A DNA stretch of 24,000 nucleotides. It comes from Bacillota bacterium. GTDB lineage: Bacteria > Bacillota > DSM-12270 > Thermacetogeniales > Thermacetogeniaceae. The position numbers and the translations under genes were made by a program. This document shows positions 464 through 18,726 of this stretch, one piece after another. The DNA lies in NCBI GenBank assembly GCA_029907475.1, contig JARYLU010000007.1:1-24000 (forward strand). The letters are read 5' to 3'. Below the pieces are notes generated by a model, which ran no database searches, was not told where the DNA came from, and saw only the letters and a program-made list of their open reading frames with translations. Every line of letters begins with the position of its first letter. Position 1 is the stretch's first letter.

Positions 464-502
464 TATATTGACAAACGCAACCGTTATATAAATGAGTAAC
501 AA

Positions 503-514: not shown

Positions 515-543
515 AATTACTTAAAACATCCGGGGAGGCGAAG

Positions 544-2095: not shown

Positions 2096-2113
2096 GGGTA
2101 AAGATGCTAAGAG

Positions 2114-2145
2114 GATGCCCTGTTCAAAATGGGCATCTTTTTGTT
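2114..2145 (+). terminator. Rho-independent terminator after the sigma/anti-sigma operon
   Basis: GATGCCC (2114-2120) pairs with GGGCATC (2131-2137) around a 10-nt loop. TTTTTGTTG follows the stem. Confidence 0.75.
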
Positions 2146-2201
2146 GCTAACGTCCTGGGACGCTCTTGCCCTGGAAGAACCATCCTCGAAAGGCGAACGC
2201 T

Positions 2202-2522: not shown

Positions 2523-2751
2523 CGCTGAACCCCCTCTTATATGCACTCCTGCAACACCGCTGATCCTTTTTCTTCCAGCTTTAAGAGATGCCGGTACAGG
2601 TCCCTCCTCCCGCCCTGTAAAAACCGCCAGAGCCGGTGGAAAGAGCCAAGGCTAAGGCCTTGACCAGGACAACCCGGGGCCTGATTCTGCCCCCTTCCCC
2701 ACGCCACCGCGTACATAATTCAGGTATGCCGTGGCCCTTTACGTCCCGCGC

Positions 2752-2788
2752 CAGAAAATAAACGAGAGGGCCCACCAAAAAGACCCTC
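2752..2788 (-). terminator. Candidate intrinsic terminator downstream of the permease-USP unit
   Basis: The minus strand reads GAGGGTC-tttttggtg-GGCCCTC, a 7-bp stem with one G-U pair. The tail is TCGTTTATTTTCT. It lies ~150 nt past the USP stop. Confidence 0.4.
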
Positions 2789-2936
2789 GCATCCCGGCCT
2801 GTCACCCTCGCTTCGCCTGTCCTGTTACCCGGCCTTCCAGAAGTCGCTCGCTGGTAGACCCGGCCGAAATATTCTCATCCTCTGTTGGTGTCACTAGAAG
2901 TGACGTGGAAGTCTAACGTGAAAAATCGGCCCGCTT

Positions 2937-3395
2937 TTAGGTTTTCTTCTCCCGGACTACCAGGACAGGACAATGAGCGTACCGCACCACATGCTCGGCA
3001 ACACTTCCGATTAAAAGGTATGTAAGACGTGAATAACCATGCGCTCCGACGACGATGAGATCGGCGTCCTGTTCCCGCGCCCAGTCCACAATAACCTGGC
3101 GGGGACTCCCGCTCAAGACAGCTCCGCTTACGTCCCTGAGTCCGGCCTTTTCAGCGAGCTCGACAACCTCATCGACGGCGCGGCTACCCTCCTCCTGCAA
3201 GGTCTCCAGCGCCAGGTACTGGTAGGCACCCAGGTGAAACGCGACATGGGTATTAATGACATAGATGACCCGCAGTTGGGCTCCGTTCAGCCTGGCTAAA
3301 GAAACCGCGTGGCGGGCGGCATGCAAAGCTGCAGGCGACCCGTCTGTTGCAGCAACAATCAACCTGTAAGAAACCCCAGTATGGTTCTCGGTCAA
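2937..3395 (-). CDS. Universal stress protein (UspA family)
   Basis: 152 aa. USP hallmarks are present: RLIVAATDGSPAALHAARHA near the N-terminus and DLIVVGAHGYSRL...GSVAEHVVRYAHCPVLVV near the C-terminus. The start is TTG 3395, preceded by AAGGAGGT with a 6-nt spacer. Confidence 0.9.
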   Translation of the reverse strand: MTENHTGVSYRLIVAATDGSPAALHAARHAVSLARLNGAQLRVIYVINTHVAFHLGAYQYLALETLQEEGSRAVDEVVELAEKAGLRDVSGAVLSGSPRQVIVDWAREQDADLIVVGAHGYSRLTYLLIGSVAEHVVRYAHCPVLVVREKKT

Positions 3396-3494
3396 GGGTA
3401 GACCTCCTTAAGGTAGCCTTTCATGCACTTCTACCCACCTCAAGTAAATTATTTATTTTACTTCGCTATCCGGTGGTTTTAATCCTCCTTGCAG

Positions 3495-4778
3495 TTAACG
3501 AAAATAAAAGATTAGAAGGTACACCTGAGCAATCGCGACGGAGAGAAGCATGAGAGGGAAGGCCACCTTAAAGAACTTCACAAAAGAAAGCGTAACCCCG
3601 TTGCGCTCCGCCAGTCCCGCAACGATCACGTTGGCGGCAGCCCCGATCAGGGTCCCGTTCCCCCCGAGGCAGGCGCCCAACGCAAGCGACCACCATAAGG
3701 GATCGAGGTTTAAAATCCCGCCGAAGTGTCCCATTTCCTTGATGAGAGGAATCATCGCCGCAACAAAAGGTATGTTATCGACAACGGATGATGCGATGGC
3801 CGAAAACCACAAGATAAGTGTTCCGGTCGCCAGAACCCGGCCTTTCGTGAGATCTAAAGCGGCCCGCGCCAGTTCTTCGATAATCCCCACTTTCTCCAGG
3901 GCCCCCACAATGATAAAAAGGCCCATAAAAAAGAAAATTGTCGGCCATTCCACACTGAGGAGCACGTCTTCAATTTCTTCCCGGGTGATGAAAAGCAGAA
4001 GCACCGCTCCGCCCAGGGCAATTGAAGCCGTTTCTAGATGGAGGGCGCCGTGCAGGAAAAAGCCGAGGATTGTTAAACCTAAAACGGCCAGGGACCGGCG
4101 CATCAGCCTGTAGTCTTTAATCTGGGCAACGGCATCGAATGTTTTCACTTTTTCTTTCAGATGATCTTCGATCTCGAGGTTTCTGCGGTAGATCAGCCAG
4201 AGGAAAAACAAAGTAATCAGAAAAATGACGACCGCCACCGGGGCAAGGGTCACGAGAAAATCAAGAAAGGTGAGCTTTGTAGCACTTCCGATCATAATGT
4301 TGGGAGGGTCTCCGATCAGGGTGGCAGTCCCTCCGATGTTGGAGGCAAGAATCTCTGCAACGACGAAAGGCACCGGATTAAGATTGAGTTCGTAAACGAT
4401 GGAAAAGGTTACGGGTACCACAAGAAGCACGGTCGTGACGTTATCCAGAAAAGCAGAAGCGACCGCCGTAAGAACTGCCAGGCCGGCTAAAATCCGGAAG
4501 GGTTCTCCACGTGCCAGGCGGGCCGCCAAGACCGCCAGGAACTCGAAAACCCCGCTCCGGCGGGTCACTCCGACAATGATCATCATTCCCACCAGCAGGC
4601 CAATGGTATTAAAATCTATCGCACGAACGGCTTCTGCCTGCGTGAGGAGGCCGCTCGCCAGAACAGCCATCCCCCCCGCGAGGGCTGCTGCGGAGCGGTG
4701 AATCTTCTCCGTAACAATCAGACCATAGACCGCAACAAAGATTCCTGCTCCCAACAAAACCGGCCCTTCTGCCGTCAT
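3495..4778 (-). CDS. ArsB/NhaD (CitMHS-like) superfamily ion/anion permease
   Basis: 427 aa and polytopic. The N- and C-terminal hydrophobic halves look like an internal repeat. GDPPNIMIG and GGNGTLIGAAANV motifs are typical of this superfamily. It is co-oriented with the downstream USP. Confidence 0.75.
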   Translation of the reverse strand: MTAEGPVLLGAGIFVAVYGLIVTEKIHRSAAALAGGMAVLASGLLTQAEAVRAIDFNTIGLLVGMMIIVGVTRRSGVFEFLAVLAARLARGEPFRILAGLAVLTAVASAFLDNVTTVLLVVPVTFSIVYELNLNPVPFVVAEILASNIGGTATLIGDPPNIMIGSATKLTFLDFLVTLAPVAVVIFLITLFFLWLIYRRNLEIEDHLKEKVKTFDAVAQIKDYRLMRRSLAVLGLTILGFFLHGALHLETASIALGGAVLLLFITREEIEDVLLSVEWPTIFFFMGLFIIVGALEKVGIIEELARAALDLTKGRVLATGTLILWFSAIASSVVDNIPFVAAMIPLIKEMGHFGGILNLDPLWWSLALGACLGGNGTLIGAAANVIVAGLAERNGVTLSFVKFFKVAFPLMLLSVAIAQVYLLIFYFR

Positions 4779-5005: not shown

Positions 5006-5057
5006 TCATCTAAACACAAGGAGAATGATCCATATTCATCATACTGGGGGGAAAGCC

Positions 5058-5891
5058 ATGAAAATCGATGTGCACGTACATATTCTGTCCCCGGATTTCA
5101 TCCGGGACCTCCAGAGGAACCTGGAACGGGACGCTCACTTTAAAATGCTTCATTCCGGCCCGAAAGCCAAGTTCGCAACAGCCGAAGACGTCCTGGCCAA
5201 CATGGAGAAAACCGGGATCGAGAAATCGGTAGTTTTTGCTTTTCCTTACCGCGACCTGGGGATGTGCCGGGAAGGGAATGATTACATCATTGAAACGGTG
5301 AAACGCTACCCCGACCGGTTCATCGGCTTTGCAGTCGTCCCTCCTCAGGAGCCGGGGATGGAGCAGGAGCTGATCCGCTGCCGGGAAGCCGGACTGAAAG
5401 GAGCAGGAGAGATCATCCCCGCCGCCGTCCACATCGATATTTCCGAGCAAAACCAGGTGGGGCGCTTTACCGGTGTCTGCCGGGAACTGAACTTTCCCAT
5501 CTTGATGCATACAAATGAACTGGTAGGCCACTATTACCCGGGCAAGGGGAAAATAGGGCCCGAGCATGCCTATCACTTTGCTGTTAACAATCCCGACAGC
5601 AAGATCATTTTCGCCCACTGGGGCGGGGGGCTTTTCTTTTACGAACTAATGCCGGAAATCCACAGCTCGCTGAGGCATGTCTTCTATGATACAGCGGCCT
5701 CACCCTTTCTTTTCCGGCCGCAGGTTTACGAAGCCGCCCGGCTCGCCGGGGTGCTTCCGAAAGTCCTGCTGGGAAGCGACTTCCCGCTTCTCTCGCCGGC
5801 ACGCTACTACAAAGAGTGGGAGCAGACAAACCTCACGGAGGAAGAAAAGGCAGGGATCCGCGGCGAAAATGCCTGCCGCCTTTTCCCTTAA
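5058..5891 (+). CDS. Amidohydrolase-2 family metal-dependent hydrolase (TIM barrel)
   Basis: MKIDVHVHILSP is the N-terminal HxH metal motif. HTNE, FAHWGGG and a GSDFP-type Asp occur later. I chose ATG 5058 because of the GGGGGGA SD; the ORF-track start 5025 has none. Confidence 0.8.
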   Translation: MKIDVHVHILSPDFIRDLQRNLERDAHFKMLHSGPKAKFATAEDVLANMEKTGIEKSVVFAFPYRDLGMCREGNDYIIETVKRYPDRFIGFAVVPPQEPGMEQELIRCREAGLKGAGEIIPAAVHIDISEQNQVGRFTGVCRELNFPILMHTNELVGHYYPGKGKIGPEHAYHFAVNNPDSKIIFAHWGGGLFFYELMPEIHSSLRHVFYDTAASPFLFRPQVYEAARLAGVLPKVLLGSDFPLLSPARYYKEWEQTNLTEEEKAGIRGENACRLFP

Positions 5892-6028: not shown

Positions 6029-6838
6029 TTAAGCGTAACTGTGCATTCCCGGGAGCAAATAATTAACGCCGAAAAAGGTGAACAAAACCGCCAAAAAACC
6101 CACGACCACCAGGATTGCGGCCGGACGGCCCCGCCAACCCCGGTATTTGCGGATGTGCAGATAGATCCCGAAAATAATCCAGGTCACCAGAGACCAGGTC
6201 TCCTTGGGGTCCCAACTCCAGTAACTTCCCCACGCTTTTTCCGCCCAGACGGCACCGGTCACAATGGTCAGGGACAGCATCATGAACCCGAAAGCCACAA
6301 CCTTGTAGATCAGTTCATCCAGCAACGCTTCCCCTTCTTTAACTCCATCGTCCCTGTACCTCCACAGGTATAAGGCGGACAGACCGCAGGCAAGGGCAAA
6401 GGCGCTGTAAGCCGCCACCGCCGTCAGAACATGGACTGTCAACCAGCCGCTTTTCAAGGCCGGCATCAATGGAGCGACGGCATTCGGCTGCTCCGGCATC
6501 AAAATCCAGATAAAGGCCAGCAGGGCCCAGGCAGAGGCCAGCACAAAACCACCCGCCGCTTTAACGGCTGTGCGCAATTCAAAAATCAAATATAGCAGCA
6601 CTATCCCCCAGGCAAAAGTCAGCAGAAACTCGTATCCGGTTGACAGGGGAAGCCTGCCGGTCAGCACCGACCTGGCGATGAGCGCCACAGTGTTTGTCGC
6701 CCAACCCAGCCCGGCGGCGACTCTGGCCGCCTTCCAGGCCACCTGCCGCCCGGCGGCAGCATACCAGAAATAAAGAATCATACCCAAAAAATAGAGGATA
6801 AATGTGGCAGCTAACGCAATTTGCTGCAGCGAACTCAA
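6029..6838 (-). CDS. resC: Cytochrome c biogenesis protein CcsA/ResC (System II haem handling)
   Basis: 269 aa and polytopic. It carries the tryptophan-rich WWD signature WGSYWSWDPKETWSLVTW with flanking His residues. Confidence 0.9.
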   Translation of the reverse strand: MSSLQQIALAATFILYFLGMILYFWYAAAGRQVAWKAARVAAGLGWATNTVALIARSVLTGRLPLSTGYEFLLTFAWGIVLLYLIFELRTAVKAAGGFVLASAWALLAFIWILMPEQPNAVAPLMPALKSGWLTVHVLTAVAAYSAFALACGLSALYLWRYRDDGVKEGEALLDELIYKVVAFGFMMLSLTIVTGAVWAEKAWGSYWSWDPKETWSLVTWIIFGIYLHIRKYRGWRGRPAAILVVVGFLAVLFTFFGVNYLLPGMHSYA

Positions 6839-7963
6839 TTAAACCTCCCCCTCTTTTCCGTTGTTTTTCGCCCCTGCGCCCGGCAGGCGAGGCTGGTAGA
6901 GCGCCATAAAAATGCCGGCCAGAAGGAGCACAAAACCTGCCCACACAAAAATAATACCCGGGTCGCTCTTTACTTTCAACGTGGTCAAGGGCACGGTTTC
7001 CGCAAACCGGAAATTGACTTCCTCGGTAACCGACACCTTTTCTCTCAACCGTGCAATACCCACGCCAATCCGCTCCTCCCCTTCATAAACCGAGAAGACG
7101 ACCCTGGGGTTTGCCGGTTCCAGATTCTTCGATTCCATCCCGTAAGACGGGTCGTAATTGGGAATGTAACGGTAGAGAAGCACCCGGTATCCGGTACCGG
7201 GAATGTTGACGAATTCACCCTCTTTTACCAGCGCCTGATCTTCGCCGTCGGAGTTACCAAACGCCACCCTGACTGCCCAGCCGTATCTCTCCTGATACAT
7301 TGTCACCCCGCGATACTTGAGGGGGTGGTTGACGGATATATCAAAGGTCCCGATCCTTTTAGACCGGTCCCATATTGTTACGCGGGAAATGAACTGGGAA
7401 GGAGAACCATCGGGGTATAAATCGATACGGAAATCGTTGAGATGAAGGTCGAAAGATTTCTCCTGTCCGAACACTTGAGCCATTGACGCGGTTTCTCCCT
7501 CGGCAATGCTTACAAGGGCTTCTCTCCCCCAAAAAGAGCAGACTGCGCCTCCGAGCAAAACGAATAAGAAGCCGGTATGTAAAAAGAACAGGCCGAAGGA
7601 ACGCCAGTTTCCCTGTCGCAAATCCTTGCGCGTGGAAAATATTACTTTACAGCGTTTTGAGGTACAAAGCAGCATATTCAAAAAAAGCAGCGCCAGCAGC
7701 GACTTGAAAAACCAGGTGTGATAAAAGCCGTCCAGGGACAACAGAGCGGCTACGGCAGCAATTCCCCCGATAATAATAAGCAGCGCAAGTCCCACCCGCA
7801 TGGACCTGAAAAAATCGATCGCCTTTTTCACGGTTCTGCCTTCCTCCCCGGCAAATAACATCACCTCAGTACAAAAACAAGGGAAAGGGGCTCGCAGCAT
7901 CCCGCTTTCGCCCCTTTCATATTTTTCAAATTTGTTAACCCTGTTGTCGACAAGTATTCTCAT
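6839..7963 (-). CDS. resB: Cytochrome c biogenesis protein ResB/Ccs1 (System II)
   Basis: It abuts resC (stop 6839, resC start 6838). It has a ResB-like FFRSMRVGLALLIIIGGIAAV N-terminal TM, a large external domain and a C-terminal TM. ATG 7963 follows AGGAGG. The internal ATG 7861 is an alternative start, since ~50 aa precede the first TM. Confidence 0.8.
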   Translation of the reverse strand: MRILVDNRVNKFEKYERGESGMLRAPFPCFCTEVMLFAGEEGRTVKKAIDFFRSMRVGLALLIIIGGIAAVAALLSLDGFYHTWFFKSLLALLFLNMLLCTSKRCKVIFSTRKDLRQGNWRSFGLFFLHTGFLFVLLGGAVCSFWGREALVSIAEGETASMAQVFGQEKSFDLHLNDFRIDLYPDGSPSQFISRVTIWDRSKRIGTFDISVNHPLKYRGVTMYQERYGWAVRVAFGNSDGEDQALVKEGEFVNIPGTGYRVLLYRYIPNYDPSYGMESKNLEPANPRVVFSVYEGEERIGVGIARLREKVSVTEEVNFRFAETVPLTTLKVKSDPGIIFVWAGFVLLLAGIFMALYQPRLPGAGAKNNGKEGEV

Positions 7964-8035: not shown

Positions 8036-9598
8036 CTATGCCCAGGGTTTCTCCGCGGCAGCATTCTTGCCACAAATACGTCCGAAAGTACATGTGAAGG
8101 AAACAGCTGTTCCGCTGCCGGGATAAATTTTTCCCCGCCAACCGCCTGTTGTGCTACCGGTTGCATACAATCTTGGAATCACTTTGCCCTCCATATTGAG
8201 TACCTTGCCCTCAGTATTAATTTTTAAGCCTCCTGCAGTGTCACAGGTAGCAGGTACAGTTTTTGCTGCGTAGAATGGTGCTCTTTGAACGGGTCCTAGA
8301 CCTACCTTTTTACCGAATTCTTGATCCTTACCTTCCCTGGCATATTTATTGTATATATTTACAGTTTGCTCAAGAGCATTCGGGTCTACATTGATCTGCT
8401 CAGCCAGTTCCTTGATTGTGTCTGCCTTTTTTACCCAACCTTTTTCAACTTCTCTCACACAACCATCACTAAAACCAGGTACAGCGATCACTTCTCCACC
8501 GAGGTCAGTTACATCCTGATCCCAGATTGCCCACACAAATCCTCCTGGTTGGTCGGCGATCTTTTCATAAAGGAATTCATAGTAGAGGTCCTCGCTGAAG
8601 TGCCTCTTGCCGTCGGTGCTTACAAAAATGCAGGGTTTGCCCCAAATAGGAATTACCATACATGGGGTCATTTCAGGAGTTGTGGGTACCCCCATGGTAG
8701 CAGCCTGTGGTATCCACATATTTACGATCTTGGCGCCTATCGCCATACCCATTACAATTCCATCACCCTGCTGATGCATAGAACCAAAAGAACCACCGGT
8801 TAACAATTCCGGCATGAAACTCTTTATTAACTCCTTATTCCGGGAGAACCCGGCAGTGGCTAACACAACTCCTTTTTTAGCCTTAACAAAAATCTTTTTC
8901 CCTTCCCGGTCGGCTTCTACACCCAGAACCTCGTTTTCACTATTTGTAATCAACCGGGTTCCTCTTGTCTTACATAAAAACTTGACATTCTTTTTCTGAG
9001 CGGTCTTATACAGAACTTCTGCAATTGGCCTCCCGCTGTGAGCGTCCGTTATATGACCTCGCGCTACCGGAGGGGTAATATTGGCGTAATCCCTCTCGTT
9101 TCCTGATATGTAGAGGTTCTCGACGGGGAAATTAACACCCAACGCAGCCAGCCATTCGACTGTCTCTCCGGATTTTTGTGCCCAAACCCTCCTGAGATCC
9201 GGGTCTTCAAAGCCTCCACCTACGGCTGCCAGGTACTTTTCAAATTCCTCGGCAGAATCCTTGATCCCCGCCTTTTTCTGAAACGACGTATTAGCGCCCA
9301 TTACGACCCCACCGCATATTGCCGTATTAGAGAACAACGGGGATTCCATTACTTCTAAAACCGTGACAGAAGCACCAGCTTCGGCTGCCTCAATAGCGGC
9401 AGCTAACCCGCCACCGCCTCCACCGACAACCACAACATCCGCTTCTTCATCCCATTTTTCAGGGATTCCTGATGCCCCCGCTTTTTTGGGAAACATCTGG
9501 CTCCCGGCAATCGCCCCGACTACCAAGCCACCACCACCAACACCTGCCAACTTAATGAACTCTCTTCTCGATACGCCTCCAGAACCGTTCTCCGGCAT
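8036..9598 (-). CDS. Tat-signal FAD-dependent oxidoreductase, fumarate reductase/KstD superfamily (flavoprotein B)
   Basis: 520 aa. SRREFIKLAGVGGGGLVVGAIAG is a twin-arginine signal. DVVVVGGGGGGLAAAIEAAEAG is a dinucleotide-binding fold. QQGDGIVMGMAIGA and a C-terminal GGLKIN...LYATGSTTGG segment are present. AAGGAGAGGAG SD. Confidence 0.85.
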   Translation of the reverse strand: MPENGSGGVSRREFIKLAGVGGGGLVVGAIAGSQMFPKKAGASGIPEKWDEEADVVVVGGGGGGLAAAIEAAEAGASVTVLEVMESPLFSNTAICGGVVMGANTSFQKKAGIKDSAEEFEKYLAAVGGGFEDPDLRRVWAQKSGETVEWLAALGVNFPVENLYISGNERDYANITPPVARGHITDAHSGRPIAEVLYKTAQKKNVKFLCKTRGTRLITNSENEVLGVEADREGKKIFVKAKKGVVLATAGFSRNKELIKSFMPELLTGGSFGSMHQQGDGIVMGMAIGAKIVNMWIPQAATMGVPTTPEMTPCMVIPIWGKPCIFVSTDGKRHFSEDLYYEFLYEKIADQPGGFVWAIWDQDVTDLGGEVIAVPGFSDGCVREVEKGWVKKADTIKELAEQINVDPNALEQTVNIYNKYAREGKDQEFGKKVGLGPVQRAPFYAAKTVPATCDTAGGLKINTEGKVLNMEGKVIPRLYATGSTTGGWRGKIYPGSGTAVSFTCTFGRICGKNAAAEKPWA

Positions 9599-9789
9599 TT
9601 TGGAAACTCCTCTCCTTTATTATTATACATCATTTTTTTAATATAAGGGTATAAAAATGCTTACTCTCTTTAGATTTTCAAGTCAAAAGAGCGGCACCTT
9701 GAGCAGTATACATTTTGTGACACTCGTTGCACCCTAAACCTTCTTCGTGCGGATTAGCATGGGGATTATGTCCAGAGTTTTTCTATTCC

Positions 9790-10326
9790 TTATAGCGACT
9801 TCCATTCTGGACCTAATAGATTCGTTGGACTATGACACTGGGAACAATAGTCTTCCGAAGGCCTGTGCATGTTGTGGCAATTACTGCATTCAAGTTCACC
9901 GTAATGTGATTTATGCGGGTTTCTCTGTATCTTCTCAACCAGCCACTCGGTGCGACTAGCGAGGTCTGTGTAACTATTATGTTCGTGACATTGCAAGCAC
10001 TTCTCCATAGGTAAGGAACGCTCCCTTAAAGGAGTCTCATAGTTCCCAGTGATATACTTGATCGTTTCGCCCAGTGATTGCTGCATATCAAATTTATGAC
10101 AGTCAAGACATTCAAGGCCTGCTTTTGCATGGACATTCGCTAGAAGGTCACTTGACTCCCACGATTTCAAATACGGTTTCATCACGTGGCAGGTAGCACA
10201 GAACTGAGGTTCATCATGATAGTTCCAGAGGAAAATACCTCCACTAGTAAACACTACAAGCATTATGAATACTGTCAGCGGTAACCATGCTCTCTTTTTC
10301 TTGAGTACATTTAAATTTAAGTTCAC
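9790..10326 (-). CDS. Membrane-anchored multihaem cytochrome c, NapC/NirT/NrfH-like, five CXXCH motifs
   Basis: 178 aa with an N-terminal TM (WLPLTVFIMLVVFTSGGIFLW). CXXCH motifs lie at C43, C72, C110, C147 and C161. The first reads CATCHVM (CXXCHxM). The start is GTG 10326, preceded by AGGGAGGT. Confidence 0.85.
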   Translation of the reverse strand: MNLNLNVLKKKRAWLPLTVFIMLVVFTSGGIFLWNYHDEPQFCATCHVMKPYLKSWESSDLLANVHAKAGLECLDCHKFDMQQSLGETIKYITGNYETPLRERSLPMEKCLQCHEHNSYTDLASRTEWLVEKIQRNPHKSHYGELECSNCHNMHRPSEDYCSQCHSPTNLLGPEWKSL

Positions 10327-10426
10327 TAATGTACCTCCCTGTATCCTCTCTTCTCATACCATGAAGGTACAACCTTCCTTGCCTGGGAGAGGTTTCATCT
10401 GAGTTTCCTTTATTCTGAGTTGGGTA

Positions 10427-11965
10427 CTATCCCAAAGGCTCTTCTTTCGCGGCTAGTTTACCGGCCACCAGCCCTAAGGCTCCACCGGCGCCAGTAGCCA
10501 AACCATAGATGTAGTGGTTACCGCAGACATTCCGTAGCATGATTTCTCCGACAAGATATAGGCGTGGAATGGGCTCGCCAAAGGCGTTCTTGGGATGAAG
10601 GTTCTTATCAACGATGAAAGAAGTTGTCGGATTGTAAGCCAACCAAGCAGTATTTTTGAATGCGTAGAATGGAGGCTTGTCAATTTTTTCGATTTTTGGG
10701 GTACCTGGGCCAACCATTGTCTTTCTGCCGAATTTGGTGTCATACCCCACTGTATCAATATCCTTGTTATACTGATCAACTGTCTCTTTCAGCTTGCTGG
10801 CACCAATCTTCTTACCAAGCTCCTCGATGGTATCGGCCTTAATAAGTAGCTTGGTAGTGTTGGGACCGAGTCCGATAGGAGGGCCAGCTTTCGTAGCTTT
10901 TTCAAAGGCTTTTTGGTCAATAATCTGGTAGAGAATCGGTATGCCATTCTCCTTGGGCTGTTCCAATACTGCGCGAGTACGCTTGTTACACCAGTACAAA
11001 TCCTCGTTTATATACCGCTCGCCATTCTTATTGACCTGAATAGCGCCATAAAGGAACATTTCTGCATATCCTTCCATCGTAGTGGACGTGGGGTACATGC
11101 CCTGAACCGTATAGATAGTTGGCCTTCCTCTCATATCACACCCGGCTTCGAATACTATCTTGTGTCCGTCGCCAGTATGTCCAGGACAGGAAAGTGCTAT
11201 TACGTTACCCAGACCGGGAATGCACTCGTTTAGCATCTCAGAATTGTGGGTAAAGCCACCAGTAGCCAGGATAACAGCTTTTCGCGCTTTAATATTAATT
11301 TCTTTGCCGCCTGATTCTGCCTTAACGCCCACAACTTCTTTTTTAGCACCGTAGTAAAGCCTCTTCGCAGGAGTTTTAAACATGATCTCTATCCCATCTT
11401 CCCGCGCTTTCTTTTCTAATAACTGAACATGCTTGGCTGGGTCCACAGTATGTGTTCTGGGAACACTGCAACCCGGCGAGGGGCTTACTGTATCCTTAAT
11501 TGGGACATTTATGCTTTTGATAAGCTCATAATAAGCCAGAGTATTGTCAACATATGTGCGAACAACTTCAGGATTGGCTTCTTCTCCGTACTCAAGTATG
11601 TCCTTGTAGAATATATCGGGCGAGTCATTTATTCCGTTTTTCTTCTGGATATCTGTGCCGCAAAAGGTAATGAATCCACCGCAGATTGCGGTTGAGCTGG
11701 TCAGAGTACCTGACATTTTTTCAAGAACGAGCACCTTCGCCCCTTCTTTATTGGCACTGATTGCGGCAGCCAGACCGGCTCCACCCCCACCTACAACGAC
11801 TACATCCACCTCCTTATCCCACTTTTCTGGAACTCCTGTTGACCCTACTTTTTTGGGGAACATCTGACTCCCGGCAAGAGCTCCGACTACTAAACCGCCA
11901 CCGCCGACACTGGCGATCTTAATAAAATCTCTTCTTGTTACGCCTCCAGTCCCGTTCTCTGCCAT
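10427..11965 (-). CDS. Tat-signal FAD-dependent oxidoreductase, fumarate reductase/KstD superfamily (flavoprotein A, paralog of B)
   Basis: 512 aa. TRRDFIKIASVGGGGLVVGALAG is a twin-arginine signal. DVVVVGGGGAGLAAAISA is a dinucleotide-binding fold. PGHTGDGHKI is present. AGGAGGGG SD. Confidence 0.85.
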   Translation of the reverse strand: MAENGTGGVTRRDFIKIASVGGGGLVVGALAGSQMFPKKVGSTGVPEKWDKEVDVVVVGGGGAGLAAAISANKEGAKVLVLEKMSGTLTSSTAICGGFITFCGTDIQKKNGINDSPDIFYKDILEYGEEANPEVVRTYVDNTLAYYELIKSINVPIKDTVSPSPGCSVPRTHTVDPAKHVQLLEKKAREDGIEIMFKTPAKRLYYGAKKEVVGVKAESGGKEINIKARKAVILATGGFTHNSEMLNECIPGLGNVIALSCPGHTGDGHKIVFEAGCDMRGRPTIYTVQGMYPTSTTMEGYAEMFLYGAIQVNKNGERYINEDLYWCNKRTRAVLEQPKENGIPILYQIIDQKAFEKATKAGPPIGLGPNTTKLLIKADTIEELGKKIGASKLKETVDQYNKDIDTVGYDTKFGRKTMVGPGTPKIEKIDKPPFYAFKNTAWLAYNPTTSFIVDKNLHPKNAFGEPIPRLYLVGEIMLRNVCGNHYIYGLATGAGGALGLVAGKLAAKEEPLG

Positions 11966-12153
11966 TTGGGAACCCCTCCTATCTCATTTTTTTGGAGCCA
12001 TTCTTTAAATAACTCTATTTATCAGCCCGGATTAATAAAGGATTAAGAACTATCTTGACGCCAATGCGCATCTTATTAGGACTCCATAACTTTTCACCTT
12101 CTCTTAAGTGTTTCTGGTTAGGTCCGGTGCACTAAATCTTGTAAATATTTTTG

Positions 12154-12170
12154 CAGCAATTATCGTGCCT
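12154..12170 (-). promoter_or_regulatory. Sigma-54 (-24/-12) promoter of the flavoprotein-cytochrome operon
   Basis: The minus strand reads AGGCACGATAATTGCTG, against the consensus TGGCACG-N4-TTGCW. GG and GC are exactly 12 nt apart. The site is ~190 nt upstream of ATG 11965 and directly downstream of a sigma-54 activator gene. Confidence 0.8.
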
Positions 12171-12282
12171 AACGGTTTAAGTTTAATCAGCCTTAAAATT
12201 TCCGAAATGGGGCAGGGCTAACCCTTTTTATAAGGGAAACAGAATGAAACACCTAAATAACGCAGCCATACATTAAAAAAAT

Positions 12283-12305
12283 AAGTGTCGCACAATACGA
12301 CACTT
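12283..12305. promoter_or_regulatory. Candidate enhancer (UAS) palindrome AAGTGTCG-N7-CGACACTT
   Basis: Two perfect 8-bp arms lie ~115 bp upstream of the -24 element. This is the usual distance for an EBP binding site. Confidence 0.55.
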
Positions 12306-12376
12306 AACACCTATTCATCTTCTATTTATCGGGTTATATCACGTATTTAACCTGTTGACCGGAACCTGTATCAATT

Positions 12377-12392
12377 TGTGACATTGTTCACA
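12377..12392. promoter_or_regulatory. CRP-type palindrome TGTGA-N6-TCACA
   Basis: TGTGACATTGTTCACA matches both CRP-family consensus half-sites exactly. It sits 17 nt after the EBP stop and ~210 bp upstream of the sigma-54 promoter. Confidence 0.4.
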
Positions 12393-12408
12393 TTATTATT
12401 ACACTTTC

Positions 12409-14409
12409 TCATCCTTCCATTATTCTAAATTTCTCAAGGTGCCTGTAAAGTGTAGCCCTGGAAATCCCTAATTCGGATGCGACCTTAGTTTTATTGCCTT
12501 TAAAATGAGTCAAGAGTTGAATAATCATTTCTTTTTCATAATTTCTGATACTGAGTATTTCTCTATTGGATAGGTTACTGTTACAAGATCTAACTTCTTC
12601 AGGCAAGTCTTTAACGCCTATATAACAAGAACTTGTTATATGTACAGCCCTTTCAATAACGTTGCTTAATTCCCGAATGTTCCCCGGCCAGTTATAGTTG
12701 CATAATTCTTCTAATGCTTCCGGTGTGATGCCTCGAATCTTTTTACCCAATGAGGTCGAGTATCTTAAAATAAAATTATCAACCAAGAGAGGAATATCGT
12801 CTTTGCGCTCCCGCAATGGCGGCAACTCAATATTAAGGACGTTAAGCCTGAAAAAGAGATCTAGCCTAAAACGCCCTGTTAATGCATCTTCCCGGAGCTT
12901 TCGATTAGTAGCTGCAATGACTCGTACATCTACCGGGATACTGCGCGCACCCCCGATCCGGGTAACCTTTTTATCTTCCAGGACCCTGAGCAAAATGATT
13001 TGCATTTCCAGAGGCATTTCCCCGATTTCATCGAGAAAAATGGTGCCATTGTGAGCCAGTTCAAATTTACCAAAATTGCCGCCTTTTTTCGCACCTGTAA
13101 AAGCTCCTTCCTCATAACCAAATAGCTCAGTTCCCAGCAGTTCCCTTGGAATTGCAGCGCAGTTGACTGAAATGAACGGGCCATTGCGCCTTAAACTGGC
13201 GTTATGTATAGCTTGGGCAAATAGTTCCTTACCACTGCCACTTTCGCCTAATAATAGAACACTCGAAGAACTTTTAGATGCCGTTTTTGCTAAGTTAATA
13301 GCTTTAAGCAAGTTTTCGTTTTGTCCAATGATATCACTAAAAACAAACTTCGCATTAGAATGAGCCGTCCTATTTACAATCTTTTTAACTAACTCGGGTT
13401 CTCTCAAGATAACGATTGCCCCTATTGTTTTCCCTTGATGATTGACAGGATAACAACTTAAACTAAAATCAATAACCCTGTTTTTAGTATAAATTGTAAC
13501 ACCATGCTCAACAATCTTCTCCTCCTGTCGTTTTAAAACTTCATATATGATACCTAACTCGGTTGAAATAGATTCTATTTTAGAACCTCTAATCTCATCT
13601 TCGGCTAATTCGAGCAACTCAACGGCATGGCTATTAACATGGGTAATTTTTCCTAAATTATCTACAACCAAGAGACTGCTACCGAAAGATTCGATTATGG
13701 TGTTTTGAAAATTACTTACAAGTTGCACATTTTGTTTTTCTTCATTTAAGGCGACAAGAGTTTCAATGGCATTAGCGGTTGATGTTACCATGCCCAAGGT
13801 ATGGGGATGAGCCTTTTCCCATAAGGCTAAAATCATTATTAACCCGATAATCTTCCCTTTGAAATTATGAATGGGGGCAGCAGAACAAGTAAAAGGATGA
13901 AATATTTTGCAGAAATGTTCTGTAGCGACAATTTGCACGGATTTATTATGGAGTAAAGCCAGTACCACAGCTGTCGTTCCAAATGTTTTTTCCTCCATAT
14001 ACATCCCTGGAACTACATTATAGTCTTTCATCTGTTGAATAAGTTTGCTATTCCCGATAATCTCAAGGATTAAACCGTTCTCATCTGTAACAATAAAAAC
14101 GAAGTCTGAATCCTCCGTAATTTTATAAAATCCTGTAAGGTATGGAATGGCAATATCTAATAATTGCTTCTTGGCTGATAACCGTTCCTCGAAATCAGAT
14201 GCGACAGAGCAATTGATTTTCGTCAAATATGGATCAACCTTGTACTCATAAGATCTTTTCCAGGAGGATAGAATGCTGATTGGTAGTAGTCCACTATCGA
14301 CAGGCTCACCCCGAATAAAGCGGGTCCACATTTCAAGAACTAGTTCCTTTTTCTCTACATAATTATGGATATATTGTGCATCGAGTGTAATCAAGCAATA
14401 TACCTCCAT
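12409..14409 (-). CDS. Sigma-54-dependent transcriptional activator (AcoR-like sensor N-terminus, PAS, AAA+, Fis-type HTH)
   Basis: 666 aa. Walker A is GESGSGKE and the GAFTGA loop reads EEGAFTGAKKGG. The C-terminal HTH is ASELGISRATLYRHL. SWKRSYEYKVDP is an AcoR-like N-terminal signature. In-frame TTG 14394 preceded by GGAGGT is an alternative start. Confidence 0.9.
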   Translation of the reverse strand: MEVYCLITLDAQYIHNYVEKKELVLEMWTRFIRGEPVDSGLLPISILSSWKRSYEYKVDPYLTKINCSVASDFEERLSAKKQLLDIAIPYLTGFYKITEDSDFVFIVTDENGLILEIIGNSKLIQQMKDYNVVPGMYMEEKTFGTTAVVLALLHNKSVQIVATEHFCKIFHPFTCSAAPIHNFKGKIIGLIMILALWEKAHPHTLGMVTSTANAIETLVALNEEKQNVQLVSNFQNTIIESFGSSLLVVDNLGKITHVNSHAVELLELAEDEIRGSKIESISTELGIIYEVLKRQEEKIVEHGVTIYTKNRVIDFSLSCYPVNHQGKTIGAIVILREPELVKKIVNRTAHSNAKFVFSDIIGQNENLLKAINLAKTASKSSSSVLLLGESGSGKELFAQAIHNASLRRNGPFISVNCAAIPRELLGTELFGYEEGAFTGAKKGGNFGKFELAHNGTIFLDEIGEMPLEMQIILLRVLEDKKVTRIGGARSIPVDVRVIAATNRKLREDALTGRFRLDLFFRLNVLNIELPPLRERKDDIPLLVDNFILRYSTSLGKKIRGITPEALEELCNYNWPGNIRELSNVIERAVHITSSCYIGVKDLPEEVRSCNSNLSNREILSIRNYEKEMIIQLLTHFKGNKTKVASELGISRATLYRHLEKFRIMEG

Positions 14410-14732: not shown

Positions 14733-15869
14733 TCACGGCTGCCAGGCTGCATCCCCGGCCCCAGTTGCTACTTTTCTGGGGGAAGTGCCGTCCGCTTCGG
14801 CAACGTAAATATCCCACTTGAACCCATTTTCCCCGGCCGCTTTCGCGAGGAGAATCTTCCTCCCATCCGGGGATACCTGGAGCCAGCTCACCCAGCCCGG
14901 AACCTCTGCAAAAGGGGAGGCCCTGCCCGTCCCCAAATCTAACACCTCGTATTTGGGGACATGCAAATGGGCCTGGGGGGCGTAAAGAAGGCCCCCGCCA
15001 CCGGGCAGCCACTGCGGATCACCTGCCGTTGCAGAGAGTACGGCCTTGCTTGTCCCTGTCTTCCGGTCTAAAAGCCACCAGCAGTCGCCGCCCCCGGCAG
15101 GCTCCGCATAGATCAGTACGTATTTCCCGTCTGGGGACCAGAGGGCGTCAACGGGAGCCTGGCCGCTTGCCCAGATGGTCTGACTGATAAGCTCCTCCGG
15201 TTCTCGTCCCGCTGCTGGAAGCGTGACCAGGCGCGCCCTGACTCTTCCTCCCTCCCCTTCACTGGCGGTGATCCAGAAACTGATCCGGTCTTCCCCGGGT
15301 ACCTCCCGGGGGTGCCAGACCCGCTCGTTTCCGCTTTTCTGTGTGGCGTAAAGAACCCTGGCGCGGTAAACATCCCCCTCCTCCCGCGCCACCCAGATTG
15401 TATCCAGGCTCGCAAGAACAAGGGACTCTCCCCCGGAAAGCCAGGCCATTTCCCCCGGCTCCTGGGCAAGGGGGCCCTGGGGGCCGATTACGGGTTTAAC
15501 TTTACCCTTGAGATCCAAAACCCCGGCGTAACCGGTAATCCACTCCCCGCTGCGGTCCACGGCTGTCAGGACCGCAATTTTTTCGCCTGTAGGGGCCCAG
15601 GGTCCAAGCGACACGTTTCCCGCATTGCCGATCCTGCGCCCTCCTTCTCCCGACGCCTTCACGATCCAGATGTACCCATCCTGCTCGTAAGCGATCAGGC
15701 GATCTTCCGGAGCAATTTCGCGCTTTGTGCGGCTCTCCCCGGCGGGGCCGGCCTCCCGGGTGCCGCGGCAACCGCTCCCTCCTGCGAGGAGCACCGCACC
15801 GATTACTAAACAGCAAAAAAGAGCCGGAACTTTCCCCCAGTACCACTTATTTCCCCCCAAGTCCACCAT
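14733..15869 (-). CDS. TolB-like beta-propeller (PD40 repeat) lipoprotein
   Basis: WSPDGKY and VSPDGRK PD40-type repeats are present. The start is set at ATG 15869, which gives a signal peptide KVPALFCCLVIGAVLLAGGSGC with a lipobox-like GSGC. The upstream 35 codons of the ORF track have no SD. Confidence 0.7.
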   Translation of the reverse strand: MVDLGGNKWYWGKVPALFCCLVIGAVLLAGGSGCRGTREAGPAGESRTKREIAPEDRLIAYEQDGYIWIVKASGEGGRRIGNAGNVSLGPWAPTGEKIAVLTAVDRSGEWITGYAGVLDLKGKVKPVIGPQGPLAQEPGEMAWLSGGESLVLASLDTIWVAREEGDVYRARVLYATQKSGNERVWHPREVPGEDRISFWITASEGEGGRVRARLVTLPAAGREPEELISQTIWASGQAPVDALWSPDGKYVLIYAEPAGGGDCWWLLDRKTGTSKAVLSATAGDPQWLPGGGGLLYAPQAHLHVPKYEVLDLGTGRASPFAEVPGWVSWLQVSPDGRKILLAKAAGENGFKWDIYVAEADGTSPRKVATGAGDAAWQP

Positions 15870-16094
15870 CTCCTTACAGAATTTCCTGAATTTTATTTCG
15901 CCGGAAAAAGCCCAAATCCTGCCTGAACGGACTAATTGGTTCCCGGCGCCTTTTATGTCCAATTCTCCAATCAAATTCAGATTAAGGAAAGGCGGCCGGG
16001 GAAATGATAAGAATAGCTTGAAACAATTATCTAACAGGATAAGTTATTAAAAATTTAAAGATAAAAAATGATTTAGACATTGAGCGGCAAAGAA

Positions 16095-16103: not shown

Positions 16104-16130
16104 GGTAGAAAAGAAAGGGGAGTGTACACC

Positions 16131-17636
16131 ATGAAAATTCTTCTTCTTTACCCCAACTACCCGGAGAGCTTCTGGAGCTTCAAGTACGCCCTCAAGTTCA
16201 TCAGCAAAAAAGCCGCCCATCCCCCGCTCGGCCTTTTGACTGTCGCCGCAATGCTTCCCCGCGCCTGGGAAAAAAGACTCATTGACCTGAATGTAAAAAA
16301 GCTCACGGACGAGGACCTGAAATGGGCCGATTACGTCTTCATAAGCGCGATGGCGATCCAGAGGAATTCCGTAAAAGAGATCCTCGCCCGCTGTAAGTCC
16401 CTCGGAGTCAGGACCGTCGCGGGAGGGCCTCTCTTCACGATGGAACCGGAAGAGTTTAACGAAGTGGATCACCTGGTCCTTAACGAAGCAGAAATTACGC
16501 TGCCCGAATTCCTGGATGATTTAGAAAAAGGGGCTGCAAAGCACATTTACACCACTGGCCGGCGCCCGGACCTGGAGAGGACCCCGGTACCCATGTGGGA
16601 GCTCATTAATCTCAACGACTACGCCTCCATGAGCATCCAGTATTCCCGGGGGTGCCCCTACGATTGCGAGTTTTGCGACATCACCTCTCTGTACGGGCGT
16701 AAACCCCGCCTTAAAAATGTAGCCCAGTTGTTGCTGGAGCTCGACTCCCTTTATGAACGCGGCTGGAAAGGGAGCATTTTTATCGTTGACGACAACTTCA
16801 TCGGGAATAAGGCCAGGTTAAAGGGAGAGGCTTTACCTGCCATGATCGAGTGGATGGAAAAGCACAAGTATCCCTTTTCGTTCATCACGGAGACCTCGAT
16901 CAACCTGGCAGATGACGAAGAGTTGATGGATCTGATGAGAAGGGCGGGATTTTCCCACGTCTTTATCGGAATCGAAACGCCAAGTGAAGAAAGCTTAAAA
17001 GAATGCAATAAGTTTCATAATGTGAACCGGAACCTGCTCGCCTCGGTAAAAAAGATCCAGAATTATGGCTTCCAGGTAAGCGCCGGATTCATCGTCGGTT
17101 TTGACAACGATACCCCGTCGATTTTCGACAGGCAGATCAACTTTATCCAGCAAAGCGGGATTGTTACGGCAATGGTCGGTTTACTCAACGCCCCGAGAGG
17201 AACGAGATTGTTTGAGCGCCTGAAAAAAGAAAAGCGCTTGCTGCCGAACTTTTCAGGAAACAACACCGATTTTTCCCTTAATTTTATCCCCAAAATGAAC
17301 CCGCAAAAATTGCTCGAGGGTTACAAGAAAATTGTCACAACGATTTATGCGCCCGGGCCCTATTACGACCGGATCTGGGAATTCTTTAAAGAGTTTAAGC
17401 CGGTGAAAAAGAGCAGGATCTCCCAGCTTCGCTTGTGCTACTTAACGGCTCTTTTCAAGGCCATGTTTTACCTGGGCGTTCTTGAAAAAGGAAGAAGGTA
17501 TTACTGGAAGCTCATCCTCAAGACTCTTGTAAAATACCCCCACCTGCTCCCCGAAGCCATTACTTTTGCAATTTACGGCTTCCACTTTCGGAAAATTTTC
17601 AGCAGGCACTCCCCCGCTGTTGAAACCGGTGAGTAA
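16131..17636 (+). CDS. B12-binding domain radical SAM protein with DUF4070-like C-terminus (class B rSAM)
   Basis: MKILLLYPNYPESFWSF...PPLGLLTVAAMLP is a B12-binding-type N-terminus. The radical SAM CX3CX2C motif reads YSRGCPYDCEFCDI. I chose ATG 16131 because of the GGGGAG SD with an 8-nt spacer. Confidence 0.85.
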   Translation: MKILLLYPNYPESFWSFKYALKFISKKAAHPPLGLLTVAAMLPRAWEKRLIDLNVKKLTDEDLKWADYVFISAMAIQRNSVKEILARCKSLGVRTVAGGPLFTMEPEEFNEVDHLVLNEAEITLPEFLDDLEKGAAKHIYTTGRRPDLERTPVPMWELINLNDYASMSIQYSRGCPYDCEFCDITSLYGRKPRLKNVAQLLLELDSLYERGWKGSIFIVDDNFIGNKARLKGEALPAMIEWMEKHKYPFSFITETSINLADDEELMDLMRRAGFSHVFIGIETPSEESLKECNKFHNVNRNLLASVKKIQNYGFQVSAGFIVGFDNDTPSIFDRQINFIQQSGIVTAMVGLLNAPRGTRLFERLKKEKRLLPNFSGNNTDFSLNFIPKMNPQKLLEGYKKIVTTIYAPGPYYDRIWEFFKEFKPVKKSRISQLRLCYLTALFKAMFYLGVLEKGRRYYWKLILKTLVKYPHLLPEAITFAIYGFHFRKIFSRHSPAVETGE

Positions 17637-17724: not shown

Positions 17725-18726
17725 TCAAGTGTAGCAGCAAAGCATGCGGGTAAGTTCTCTCTGGATCTCCGCACGTAGCGTCGAAGGAGCCATCACACGG
17801 GCGTGGGAGCCAAAGCCGAGCACCCACCGCCTGACTTCACCCAAACCACTCACCTTCAACCTGAGGATCACCCCCCCATCCTCTTGCTCTTCGATCACCT
17901 GGCTGGGATGCCACCGGCGTTCCCGGATCCAGCGGGCCTGGTAGCTATCGAAGTAAATGACGACCTCTTGCGGAGCCGGGCCCCTTTCAATGCCGAAGCT
18001 GTTTGCCAGGAAAGCTGTCACGGAAAAATCCTCGGGAATCTTAAAGCACCGTTCGGTCAGCCTGATCTCTTTAATGCGGTCCAGGGCGAAGATCCGTACT
18101 TCCCCGCGAGAGTAGCAGAAGGCAATCAGGTACCAGGCCCCGTCGTCGTACCGGAGGTGGTAGGGGGCAACCTCCCGGCTGCTCCATTCCCCCCGGCTTG
18201 CCGTATAGTATTTTACAGCTATAACCTTTCGTTCTTTCAGTGCCTGGTTGAGGAGGGTATAAACCTCCAGCAGCCGGTCTCTATCCCCCCGGACCGGGGT
18301 TTCGTCGAAGGAGATAACCTCCTGAAGGAAGGAGAAATCAACAGAAACGTGCTCGGGGAGGATTAACTCGATCTTTGCAAGCGCCCTCCTGACCATCGCT
18401 TCATAGGGGGTCCCCGCGTAGTGACCGAGGAGCTTCTCTCCCAACAAAAGCCCGATTAACTCCCCCTCGGACAGATCCAGCCTTGGCAACACGAACTCCT
18501 CCCGGTAGAAATAACCCCTCCTTTTCCGCGAGTAGGCCAGGGGTGCACTCATTAAATCGCGCATCGCCTCAAGGTCACGCTCAACCGTGCGCTTGCTTAC
18601 CTCCAGCTTTTCCGCCAGCGCCGGAACATTCGGATATTTTCCTTCCCGGATCATCTGATCGATGATGTAAATCCGCGCCAGCGCCCCCCGTTCCGGGCTT
18701 CGCCCGAAGCATCTTCTTCCCCGCAA
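17725..18726 (-). CDS. WYL-domain transcriptional regulator (YafY/PafBC-like: HTH + WYL + C-terminal extension)
   Basis: The N-terminal HTH is PNVPALAEKLEVSKRTVERDLEAM. The WYL signature is DDGAWYLIAFCYSRGEVRIFALDRI. The ORF-track start is TTG 18726 and the true start is uncertain. Confidence 0.85.
   Translation of the reverse strand: MRGRRCFGRSPERGALARIYIIDQMIREGKYPNVPALAEKLEVSKRTVERDLEAMRDLMSAPLAYSRKRRGYFYREEFVLPRLDLSEGELIGLLLGEKLLGHYAGTPYEAMVRRALAKIELILPEHVSVDFSFLQEVISFDETPVRGDRDRLLEVYTLLNQALKERKVIAVKYYTASRGEWSSREVAPYHLRYDDGAWYLIAFCYSRGEVRIFALDRIKEIRLTERCFKIPEDFSVTAFLANSFGIERGPAPQEVVIYFDSYQARWIRERRWHPSQVIEEQEDGGVILRLKVSGLGEVRRWVLGFGSHARVMAPSTLRAEIQRELTRMLCCYT

Follow-up and report, generated by a model that had tools for sequence, protein, structure and literature searches.

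A probable set of Cgr1/Cgr2-like respiratory flavin reductases, linked to Sigma-54 and apparently mosaic in layout, in a Syntrophothermus-like member of the Bacillota

We have analyzed a window of 24 kb (positions 1 to 24,000 of contig JARYLU010000007.1, Bacillota bacterium assembly GCA_029907475.1) whose minus strand carries, from 14409 to 6029, the genes for a Sigma-54 enhancer-binding activator, two flavoproteins (A and B) with a membrane-anchored multihaem cytochrome between them, and the cytochrome c biogenesis proteins ResB and CcsB. The locus probably encodes an inducible set of 'respiratory flavin reductases' that operates at the outer side of the membrane and is of the kind formed by Cgr1 and Cgr2, in a Syntrophothermus-like member of the Bacillota. 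Gut bacteria provide the precedent for this design (Cgr1/Cgr2 of Eggerthella), and the window is a new, mosaic example of it: judged from sequence comparison, the layout combines portable modules into a mosaic and is not a dedicated two-reductase machine. Every gene and motif named in a preliminary description of this DNA was recovered, and the gene content, order and coordinates given there were borne out by Pfam and NCBIfam matches and by the translations. The nearest relative of the window is a contig (L001) of the Syntrophothermus sp. metagenome-assembled genome (MAG) GCA_013314835.1, which shows 92-94% nucleotide identity to it over the activator gene, the promoter, B, ResB and CcsB. At the protein level, B is 95% identical to a Syntrophothermus sp. 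MAG protein (P0043).

The two flavoproteins, A (10427..11965, minus strand, 512 aa) and B (8036..9598, minus strand, 520 aa), both match PF00890, with E-values of 1e-43 and 2e-56, respectively. Their best sequence match in the PDB is UrdA (E 7.4e-37 for A and 1.9e-58 for B), with Fcc3 also among the best. Both sequence and AlphaFold2 models (mean pLDDT 84.7 for A and 79.0 for B) place the two proteins in the fold shared by Fcc3, UrdA and KstD. More specifically, the models superpose on UrdA, Fcc3, KstD and cyclohexanone dehydrogenase with TM-scores of 0.63-0.78, and the Foldseek TM-scores are 0.73-0.74 for A against Fcc3 and UrdA, and 0.75-0.78 for B against UrdA, KstD and cyclohexanone dehydrogenase. 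The N-termini of A (TRRDFIK) and B (SRREFIK) match the profiles of twin-arginine translocation (Tat) signals, marginally: A scores 24.5 bits with PF10399, for which the cut-off is 24, and the score of about 19 bits with the Tat profile PF10518 stays below the cut-off of 22.7. The earlier prediction that both flavoproteins would be exported via Tat is backed by the twin-arginine motifs and, marginally, by the profile matches. According to Pfam neither protein contains an FMN_bind domain. Such a domain (PF04205) is carried by relatives within the B clade that are 54-59% identical to B (P0148, P0151, P0153, P0155-P0165 and others), which implies that electrons reach the catalytic domain through a flavin in some lineages and through a cytochrome in others. 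A scan of the genome collection with the A-clade alignment, using generic FAD-binding motif patterns, returned only distant relatives among the matches listed, with 22-35% identity.

The cytochrome (9790..10326, minus strand, 178 aa, with a GTG start) has a lysine-rich N-terminus and an N-terminal membrane anchor of one transmembrane helix, and contains CXXCH five times, at residues 43, 73, 110, 147 and 161. It matches PF14537 (E 1.3e-15) and PF03264 (26.9 bits, above the cut-off of 24.1), and its best match in NCBIfam is the Cgr1 family NF051471 (E 4.9e-26). Residues 109-166, which include haem motifs 3-5, can be aligned to the N-terminal haem domain of Ifc3 (E 6e-5) and to that of Fcc3 (E 2.6e-4), over a region that includes the signature NPHxSH...CxxCH-x9-CxxCH. 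A resemblance to NrfH is confined to the anchor at the N-terminus and the first haem, and is weak (E 0.65). On the basis of these two similarities the protein reads as an anchor of the NrfH/NapC type fused to a haem domain of the Fcc3 type. It is not a tetrahaem protein of the NapC/NirT/NrfH family, considering its five CXXCH motifs and a score of 38.5 bits with the NrfH family TIGR03153, where the cut-off is 134. In effect the sequence reads as that of a split, membrane-tethered haem part of Fcc3, in which one polypeptide would do the jobs of both CymA and the haem domain. The number of five haems is no oddity but the commonest in the family. An exhaustive HMMER scan yielded 194 clusters (at 50% identity) with E <= 1e-10, and among the 111 full-length-like sequences within the top 150 representatives five CXXCH motifs were counted in 53, four in 24 and six in 10, while an N-terminal hydrophobic helix was present in all but one (110/111). 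The family also includes tandem-duplicated members of 290-520 aa with 10-16 CXXCH motifs (P0254, P0255, P0256, P0258, P0263, P0269, P0300 and P0370). In some members a haem motif deviates: it is the fifth, CAQCK in place of CXXCH, in the cytochromes that accompany A-like proteins on contigs L003 (11698-12207) and L079 (5687-6196), and the third, CLSCK, in P0240. A CXXCK motif denotes a lysine-ligated haem, as in NrfA, and normally needs a dedicated haem lyase.

The combination of a membrane multihaem cytochrome (of the Cytochrom_c3_2/NapC-NirT type) with an adjoining flavoprotein that has a Tat signal and a PF00890 domain is that of Cgr1/Cgr2. This likeness, already noted in the preliminary description, fits the published account of the Cgr proteins, for which a membrane complex is the working model (PMC5953540), and agrees with the best NCBIfam match of the cytochrome. 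Further points of agreement are the adjacent regulator that responds to substrate, the active sites without the arginines of Fcc3, and the nearby flavoprotein paralogues; the cgr cluster also holds a second flavoprotein, Cac4 (PMC5953540). There are clear differences as well. The cytochrome of the window scores 91.6 bits where the Cgr1 equivalog has a cut-off of 340; the regulator is a Sigma-54 activator and not of the LuxR type; and the host is a thermophilic, Syntrophomonadaceae-like member of the Bacillota in which ResB/CcsB are linked to the locus, and not an Actinobacterium of the gut. In addition, Cgr2 needs a [4Fe-4S] cluster for activity, whereas neither the A nor the B clade has a conserved set of cysteines. 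A Cgr2-like Fe-S cluster was considered for both flavoproteins, but the cysteines do not hint at one, the invariant ones being limited to C95 and C248 in the A clade and to zero in the B clade (the cluster ligands of Cgr2 are themselves undefined).

The likeness to the Shewanella proteins Fcc3 and Ifc3 resides in the FAD and clamp fold (TM-score 0.63-0.74) and in the alignable haem motifs 3-5, and the route from quinol via c-type haems and FAD to a C=C bond would be that of Fcc3 with CymA. The difference is that the haem domain of the window is separate, membrane-anchored and one haem larger, and takes the place of both CymA and the haem domain of Fcc3. The electron path from quinol to the cytochrome and on to a flavoprotein, as proposed earlier, is plausible. 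We envisage that a small molecule would be sensed by the GAF-PAS module of the activator, which would then open the Sigma-54 promoter at 12170..12156. The resulting transcript would encode A, the cytochrome and B; the cytochrome would be matured outside the membrane by ResB/CcsB (system II), and A and B would be exported via Tat in folded form, with FAD bound. Electrons would pass from menaquinol to the membrane-proximal haem, through the Fcc3-like haem chain, and to the FAD of A and B, which would dock on the cytochrome; hydride transfer from the FAD would then reduce an activated C=C bond of an organic acceptor.

Which acceptor that might be was approached through the active sites, by pairwise alignments onto the numbering of UrdA (PDB 6T85-6T88; chain index +128, checked at Y373, D388, R390 and R411). 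The carboxylate-clamping arginine R560 of UrdA corresponds to Y492 in B and Y485 in A; the proton-donating arginine R411 to Y340 in B and the Y324/W325 region in A; the hinge histidine H520 to C452 in B and Y444 in A; and the specificity residue Y373 (H365 in Fcc3) to A300 in B and V287 in A. D388 of UrdA is also replaced in both proteins. Both active sites are tyrosine-based: that of A is of a tyrosine type (Y324/W325, Y444, Y485, G488), that of B has a KstD-like Tyr/Gly constellation (A300, Y340, C452, Y492, G496), and both flavoproteins have a conserved E-D-x-Y-[YW] motif at the position of the proton-donating arginine of Fcc3. The replacing residues are invariant, or nearly so, inside each clade (alignments A1 and A2).

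One could suppose that A, B or both are ordinary fumarate, urocanate or acrylate reductases of the Fcc3, UrdA or ArdA type, given that UrdA and Fcc3 lead the PDB matches by sequence and by fold, and that B comes slightly below the cut-off of the flavocytochrome c subfamily TIGR01813 (268.5 versus 285.45). UrdA is likewise an extracytoplasmic respiratory enzyme. We regard this as extremely improbable. All four of the substrate-binding and catalytic positions (H365, R402, H504 and R545 in Fcc3; Y373, R411, H520 and R560 in UrdA), and with them the His and Arg residues that bind fumarate, are replaced in both A and B. The replacements are conserved within the clades and the identity to enzymes of the Fcc3/UrdA type is 26-31%. 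Furthermore, the electrons of UrdA enter via an FMN-binding domain, and not via a cytochrome, and such a domain is lacking in A and B. Since the Arg and His positions carry other, clade-conserved residues, A and B are probably neither fumarate nor urocanate reductases. The flavoproteins thus fall outside the families of known substrate, as had been put forward before: the substrate residues of Fcc3 and UrdA are replaced, and neither A nor B reaches the cut-off of any NCBIfam equivalog.

The second family that has to be considered is that of the flavin-dependent desaturases. B shares the motif Y-P-G-x-G with KstD1 (4C3X), the delta4-(5alpha) enzyme (4AT0) and cyclohexanone dehydrogenase (8AM3), to which its TM-scores are 0.74-0.78. 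The YPGSG of B aligns with KstD1 without gaps, which pairs Y492 with position 507 and G496 with position 511 of the 4C3X chain. We take these to be Y487 and G491 of native KstD1, assuming a 20-residue tag; together with Y318, and with Y119 in addition, they make up the catalytic residues of KstD. Y340 of B, also conserved, appears to lie in the region where the catalytic tyrosine of KstD would be expected. On these grounds, and in view of the E-D-x-Y-[YW] motif that both flavoproteins have at the site of the proton-donating arginine of Fcc3, the two might be oxidative, that is, extracytoplasmic desaturases akin to KstD or cyclohexanone dehydrogenase that deliver electrons via the cytochrome into the quinone pool. 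This is in our view very improbable. The characterized members of the superfamily that bear a signal and have either a cytochrome or an FMN-binding domain linked to them (Fcc3, UrdA, Cgr2 and the cinnamate reductases) are all reductases, whereas the solved dehydrogenase structures are of enzymes without a partner cytochrome and with 22-28% identity. In addition, a tyrosine at the R560 position is also found in proven reductases, as it is the pattern of reductase clades 2-4, the cinnamate reductases included (bioRxiv 10.1101/2022.12.26.521950). The scores with the KstD equivalogs of NCBIfam are far under the cut-offs (at most 215, where 788-793 is needed; e.g. 215 versus 789). Finally, a strict anaerobe of a syntrophic lineage would, to our knowledge, have no obvious sink for the quinol thus formed.

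When we return to a reductive role, the tyrosine at the R560 position has a second consequence. Because proven cinnamate reductases share it, the KstD-like pair leaves the substrate of B unfixed, and a firm exclusion of enoate substrates on the basis of the lost arginine had to be dropped (bioRxiv 10.1101/2022.12.26.521950). Judged by the active sites, the most likely substrates are compounds of the phenylpropanoid, enone or lactone type that have an activated C=C bond. In any case, the window proteins are no orthologues of Cgr1, Cgr2, Fcc3, UrdA or KstD.

The link with Sigma-54 is provided by the activator (12409..14409, minus strand, 666 aa) and a promoter. The activator has the Pfam domains GAF, PAS, Sigma54_activat (PF00158, E 3e-66), AAA_lid_14 and HTH_8, and the motifs GESGSGKE and GAFTGA can be seen in its translation. 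Its architecture resembles that of DhaR, AcoR and PrdR. In NCBIfam the best match over the full length is DhaR, with 442.7 bits below the cut-off of 551, and the portion from PAS to HTH also matches PrdR, again below the equivalog cut-off. The activator on L001, which is partial, shows 92.5% identity to it. Downstream lies an exact -24/-12 promoter, aGGCACGATAATTGCt (12156..12170, minus strand), which is kept in L001 and in a further locus (L002). The core GGCACG-N4-TTGC is unique within the 24 kb at up to one mismatch, and with two mismatches the pattern is not more frequent than expected by chance. The site is nevertheless credible because it is exact, has the right position and strand, and is conserved in both loci. 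A second Sigma-54 promoter was not found upstream of B, of resB or of the cytochrome gene on L001 (cyt'); the sequence TGGCAG-N4-TTGCA near position 4100 of L001 was considered and rejected because of its wrong spacing. The locus thus has the features of a Sigma-54 regulon: the activator is an AAA+ protein that contains GAFTGA and an HTH for DNA binding, and the target gene is preceded by a promoter of the form GG-N10-GC. The control by Sigma-54 and the activator that had been predicted is supported at the level of domains and promoter. As the linkage between activator, promoter and B is common to the window and L001, the inducer is more probably tied to the substrate of B.

Two other elements surround the promoter. 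A perfect palindrome, TAAGTGTCG-N7-CGACACTTA, followed by a T-run (12282..12306, minus strand; dG -13.5 kcal/mol, z -4.5), is situated some 115-135 nt ahead of the -12 element and has been kept in L001. It is a candidate for the terminator of the activator gene and/or for a binding site of the activator. Downstream of the promoter the window has about 165 nt of extra leader (11985..12150, minus strand) without a counterpart in L001, where the promoter and the start codon are about 40 nt apart. The extra leader matches no Rfam family, and the 186-nt leader folds no better than shuffled sequence (z 0.2). A repeat element was discarded as explanation for the insertion, considering that no other copy was present in the window or the fetched loci.

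A comparison of the gene order between genomes revealed how the locus may have been put together. On L001 the order is activator, promoter, B, a 107-aa activator fragment, cyt', a flavoprotein C, ResB and CcsB. The product of cyt' is 43% identical to the cytochrome of the window, and C is 41% identical to B. L001 therefore lacks the cassette formed by A and the cytochrome, and has a cyt'-C cassette instead. In the window, the A-cytochrome cassette lies between the two copies of a 249-nt direct repeat that are 75% identical: the upstream copy (11760..12008, minus strand) comprises the ribosome-binding site, the Tat signal and the first FAD-binding motif of A, the downstream copy (9393..9641, minus strand) the 5' end of the B gene. 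In a three-way alignment L001 follows the 5' end of the window's A gene over the ribosome-binding site and about 8 codons, and then switches to that of B. A crossover of this kind, at around codon 8, is the mark left by homologous recombination between the two copies of the repeat. The N-terminal signal that A and B have in common is likewise accounted for by the repeat: the two proteins are about 85% identical over the first 75 residues or so, and about 35% overall. The signal peptide of A is of the B-clade type, whereas its relatives in the A clade have one of the kind SRRxFLKG...GC (alignments A1 and A2). The A gene is therefore a chimera, in which a Tat signal of the B type sits on a FAD and clamp domain of the A clade. 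The cyt'-C cassette of L001 is in turn bounded by two segments of about 105 nt that contain a hairpin (3368-3466 and 6340-6438), of which the upstream copy is degenerate. The 107-aa fragment (L001:3514-3837) is the remnant of a second Sigma-54 activator, ahead of the cassette, and the whole looks like a decayed second module of activator and reductase.

In other genomes the same parts recur in further combinations. The order is kinase/regulator, A, cytochrome, cytochrome, B on L003 and L079; kinase/regulator, cytochrome, B on L078 and L082 (Anaerolineales MAG); and A followed by a cytochrome on L080 and L081. The cytochromes that follow A-like genes (L003, L079, L080 and L081) are 52-56% identical to that of the window, whereas B-like genes (L078, L082, L003 and L079) are preceded by a different one, with 43-44% identity. 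The latter four loci share an orthologous triple-GAF HisKA_3 kinase and a LuxR-type regulator. A B-like gene without a cytochrome is found on L083 and an A-like gene alone on L076 (Coriobacteriia MAG), while L081 has a string of a C-like flavoprotein, the A-like protein with its cytochrome and a fourth flavoprotein. On L078, a contig of 2.1 Mb, the module is flanked (1-3159) by genes for a corrinoid (B12-binding) protein, CobW, a DUF1638 protein and a GntR regulator, a set that we presume to be typical of corrinoid methyltransferase systems.

These distributions bear directly on the idea that A and B form a dedicated pair sharing one cytochrome, acting one after the other or on two double bonds within a single family of substrates. 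The idea is attractive in so far as A-like genes are linked to B-like genes under two regulatory arrangements that are unrelated to each other, with the Sigma-54 activator in the window and with the GAF kinase and LuxR-type regulator on L003 and L079, and as A and B of the window bear the same Tat signal. However, that common signal peptide is accounted for by the 249-nt recombination repeat. On L003 and L079, A and B each retain a cytochrome of their own, and L001 has B with neither A nor a cytochrome of the window type, B being paired there with flavoprotein C. Elsewhere, B-like proteins occur with their own cytochrome (L078, L082) or alone (L083), and the same holds for A-like proteins (L080 and L076, respectively). 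We therefore consider a dedicated pair unlikely. The joint presence of A and B in the window and on L003/L079 leaves some room for a functional link, yet each is clearly found in the absence of the other. The earlier view that two reductases with one cytochrome under Sigma-54 constitute a distinct system that cannot be assigned was thus abandoned. The modules are independent elsewhere and have varied regulators; the A-cytochrome cassette is an insertion/deletion with respect to L001; and a single cytochrome accompanied by several flavoproteins is a recurrent arrangement, as on L081 and, with Cac4, in the cgr cluster (PMC5953540).

Downstream of B the system II proteins for cytochrome c biogenesis follow: a ResB-like protein (6839..7831, minus strand; PF05140, E 5.9e-39) and, adjoining it, the haem-handling subunit CcsB/ResC (6029..6838, minus strand), whose score with TIGR03144 (248.6 bits) exceeds the cut-off of 187.6. 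The open frame of resB runs upstream to an ATG at 7963, which had been taken as its start. The counterpart of this ATG on L001 is mutated in one copy of the 105-nt segment and brought out of frame by a 4-nt indel in the other, and the gene call for the orthologue, which is 94.5% identical, is 330 aa. The start at 7963 is thus probably wrong and resB likely starts at the in-frame GTG at 7831, which also gives 330 aa, has GGGGAGGAAGG just upstream and is followed by a typical ResB N-terminus. This start enlarges the gap between B and resB from 72 to about 205 nt. The gap contains a terminator-like hairpin, GAAAGGGGC...GCCCCUUUC with a U-tract (7871..7918, minus strand; stem 7918..7883, then CCUUGUUUUUGU; dG -25.7 kcal/mol, z -3.1). 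The hairpin belongs to the segment of about 105 nt that is present in two copies on L001. As this conserved structure separates B from resB, the co-transcription of resB-resC with the reductase genes, assumed in the preliminary description, has become doubtful. The spacer between the cytochrome and B folds no better than shuffled sequence.

Several observations weigh against the assignment of the locus to the inducible, outer-face reductases. No tat, rpoN or menaquinone genes are present within the 24 kb. The Tat profile scores are marginal, and the distance between 91.6 bits and the Cgr1 cut-off of 340 makes the cytochrome a homologue and not an orthologue. The active sites were mapped by pairwise sequence alignment only, and the model of B is of low confidence near residues 297-306 and 491-494. 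The Tyr/Gly motif is shared with KstD and cyclohexanone dehydrogenase, both of which work as dehydrogenases, so that the reductive direction is a probable one only. The hairpin after B and the gap of 191 nt between the cytochrome and B make the presumed operon structure tentative. More generally, what is proposed here about expression, haem attachment, export and activity derives entirely from sequences and models. Gene content, motifs, homology, fold, the synteny of the modules and the recombination junctions are directly evident from these, whereas the direction of catalysis, the quinol as donor, the docking, the inducer and the substrates are deduced. As to precedent, no Cgr1-like protein has yet been produced in functional form (PMC5953540), and a literature search on cytochromes or flavoprotein reductases of Syntrophothermus yielded nothing relevant.

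The composition of the window is uneven. The GC content is about 38% in the activator gene, 45-48% in the reductase genes and 50-60% in most flanking genes. There are two stretches of low GC (about 38-40%, with flanks of 50-60%), namely the activator gene itself (12409-14409, minus strand) and 544-2095 (plus strand), which encodes an ECF-type sigma factor and its regulator with Sigma_reg_N/C domains; they could be of foreign origin or reflect a mosaic composition. Convergent to ccsB lies a gene for an Amidohydro_2 protein (5025-5891, plus strand), and beside it genes for an anion permease of the CitMHS/ArsB type (3495-4778, minus strand) and a universal stress protein (2937-3395, minus strand). 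The Amidohydro_2 family takes in aromatic-acid decarboxylases and lactonases, and these neighbours may hint at the metabolism of organic acids or aromatic compounds. The context is not kept in L001, where a transposase-like gene takes this place. The unrelated neighbours on the other side include genes for a protein of 413 aa (14733-15974, minus strand, 60% GC) with weak similarity to TolB-like beta-propellers and no Pfam match, for a B12-binding radical SAM protein with DUF4070 (16122-17636, plus strand) and a regulator with WYL/WCX domains (17725-18726, minus strand). The window contains no tRNAs, and an Rfam search of its whole length gave no match.

What the window adds to the known design are two uncharacterized flavoprotein clades, a wiring to Sigma-54 where other lineages use LuxR-type or GAF-kinase regulators, and a thermophilic host from the Bacillota with linked ResB/CcsB. 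It also adds well-resolved junctions of cassette exchange, down to about codon 8, which give a concrete view of how an arsenal of reductases is reshuffled. Respiratory flavin reductases have been described in Eggerthellaceae, Burkholderiaceae and Erysipelotrichaceae (PMC5953540; bioRxiv 10.1101/2022.12.26.521950), and the Cgr-type design is hereby extended past the Actinobacteria of the gut and the latter two families to a thermophilic relative of syntrophs. The membrane-tethered, Fcc3-like haem domain offers a testable model for docking and electron transfer in Cgr1-like proteins, and the Sigma-54 activator could serve as a handle in inducer screens.

A bolder reading would be that a syntrophic fatty-acid oxidizer of the Syntrophothermus type empties its menaquinol onto external unsaturated organic compounds, with A and B acting on double bonds, related or successive, of one family of inducers and substrates, and with the site between promoter and resBC acting as a hotspot of cassette swaps. 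Such swaps could run through the repeat of Tat signal and FAD motif and through the hairpin-bearing boundary segment. The discharge of quinol by a syntroph-like organism is a thought that derives from the general energetics of the Syntrophomonadaceae. We hold the combination to be distinctly unlikely; if it were true, the organism would have no need for a partner that consumes hydrogen or formate. In a more general sense, an organic electron sink at the level of quinol would change our understanding of the energy metabolism of such a host.

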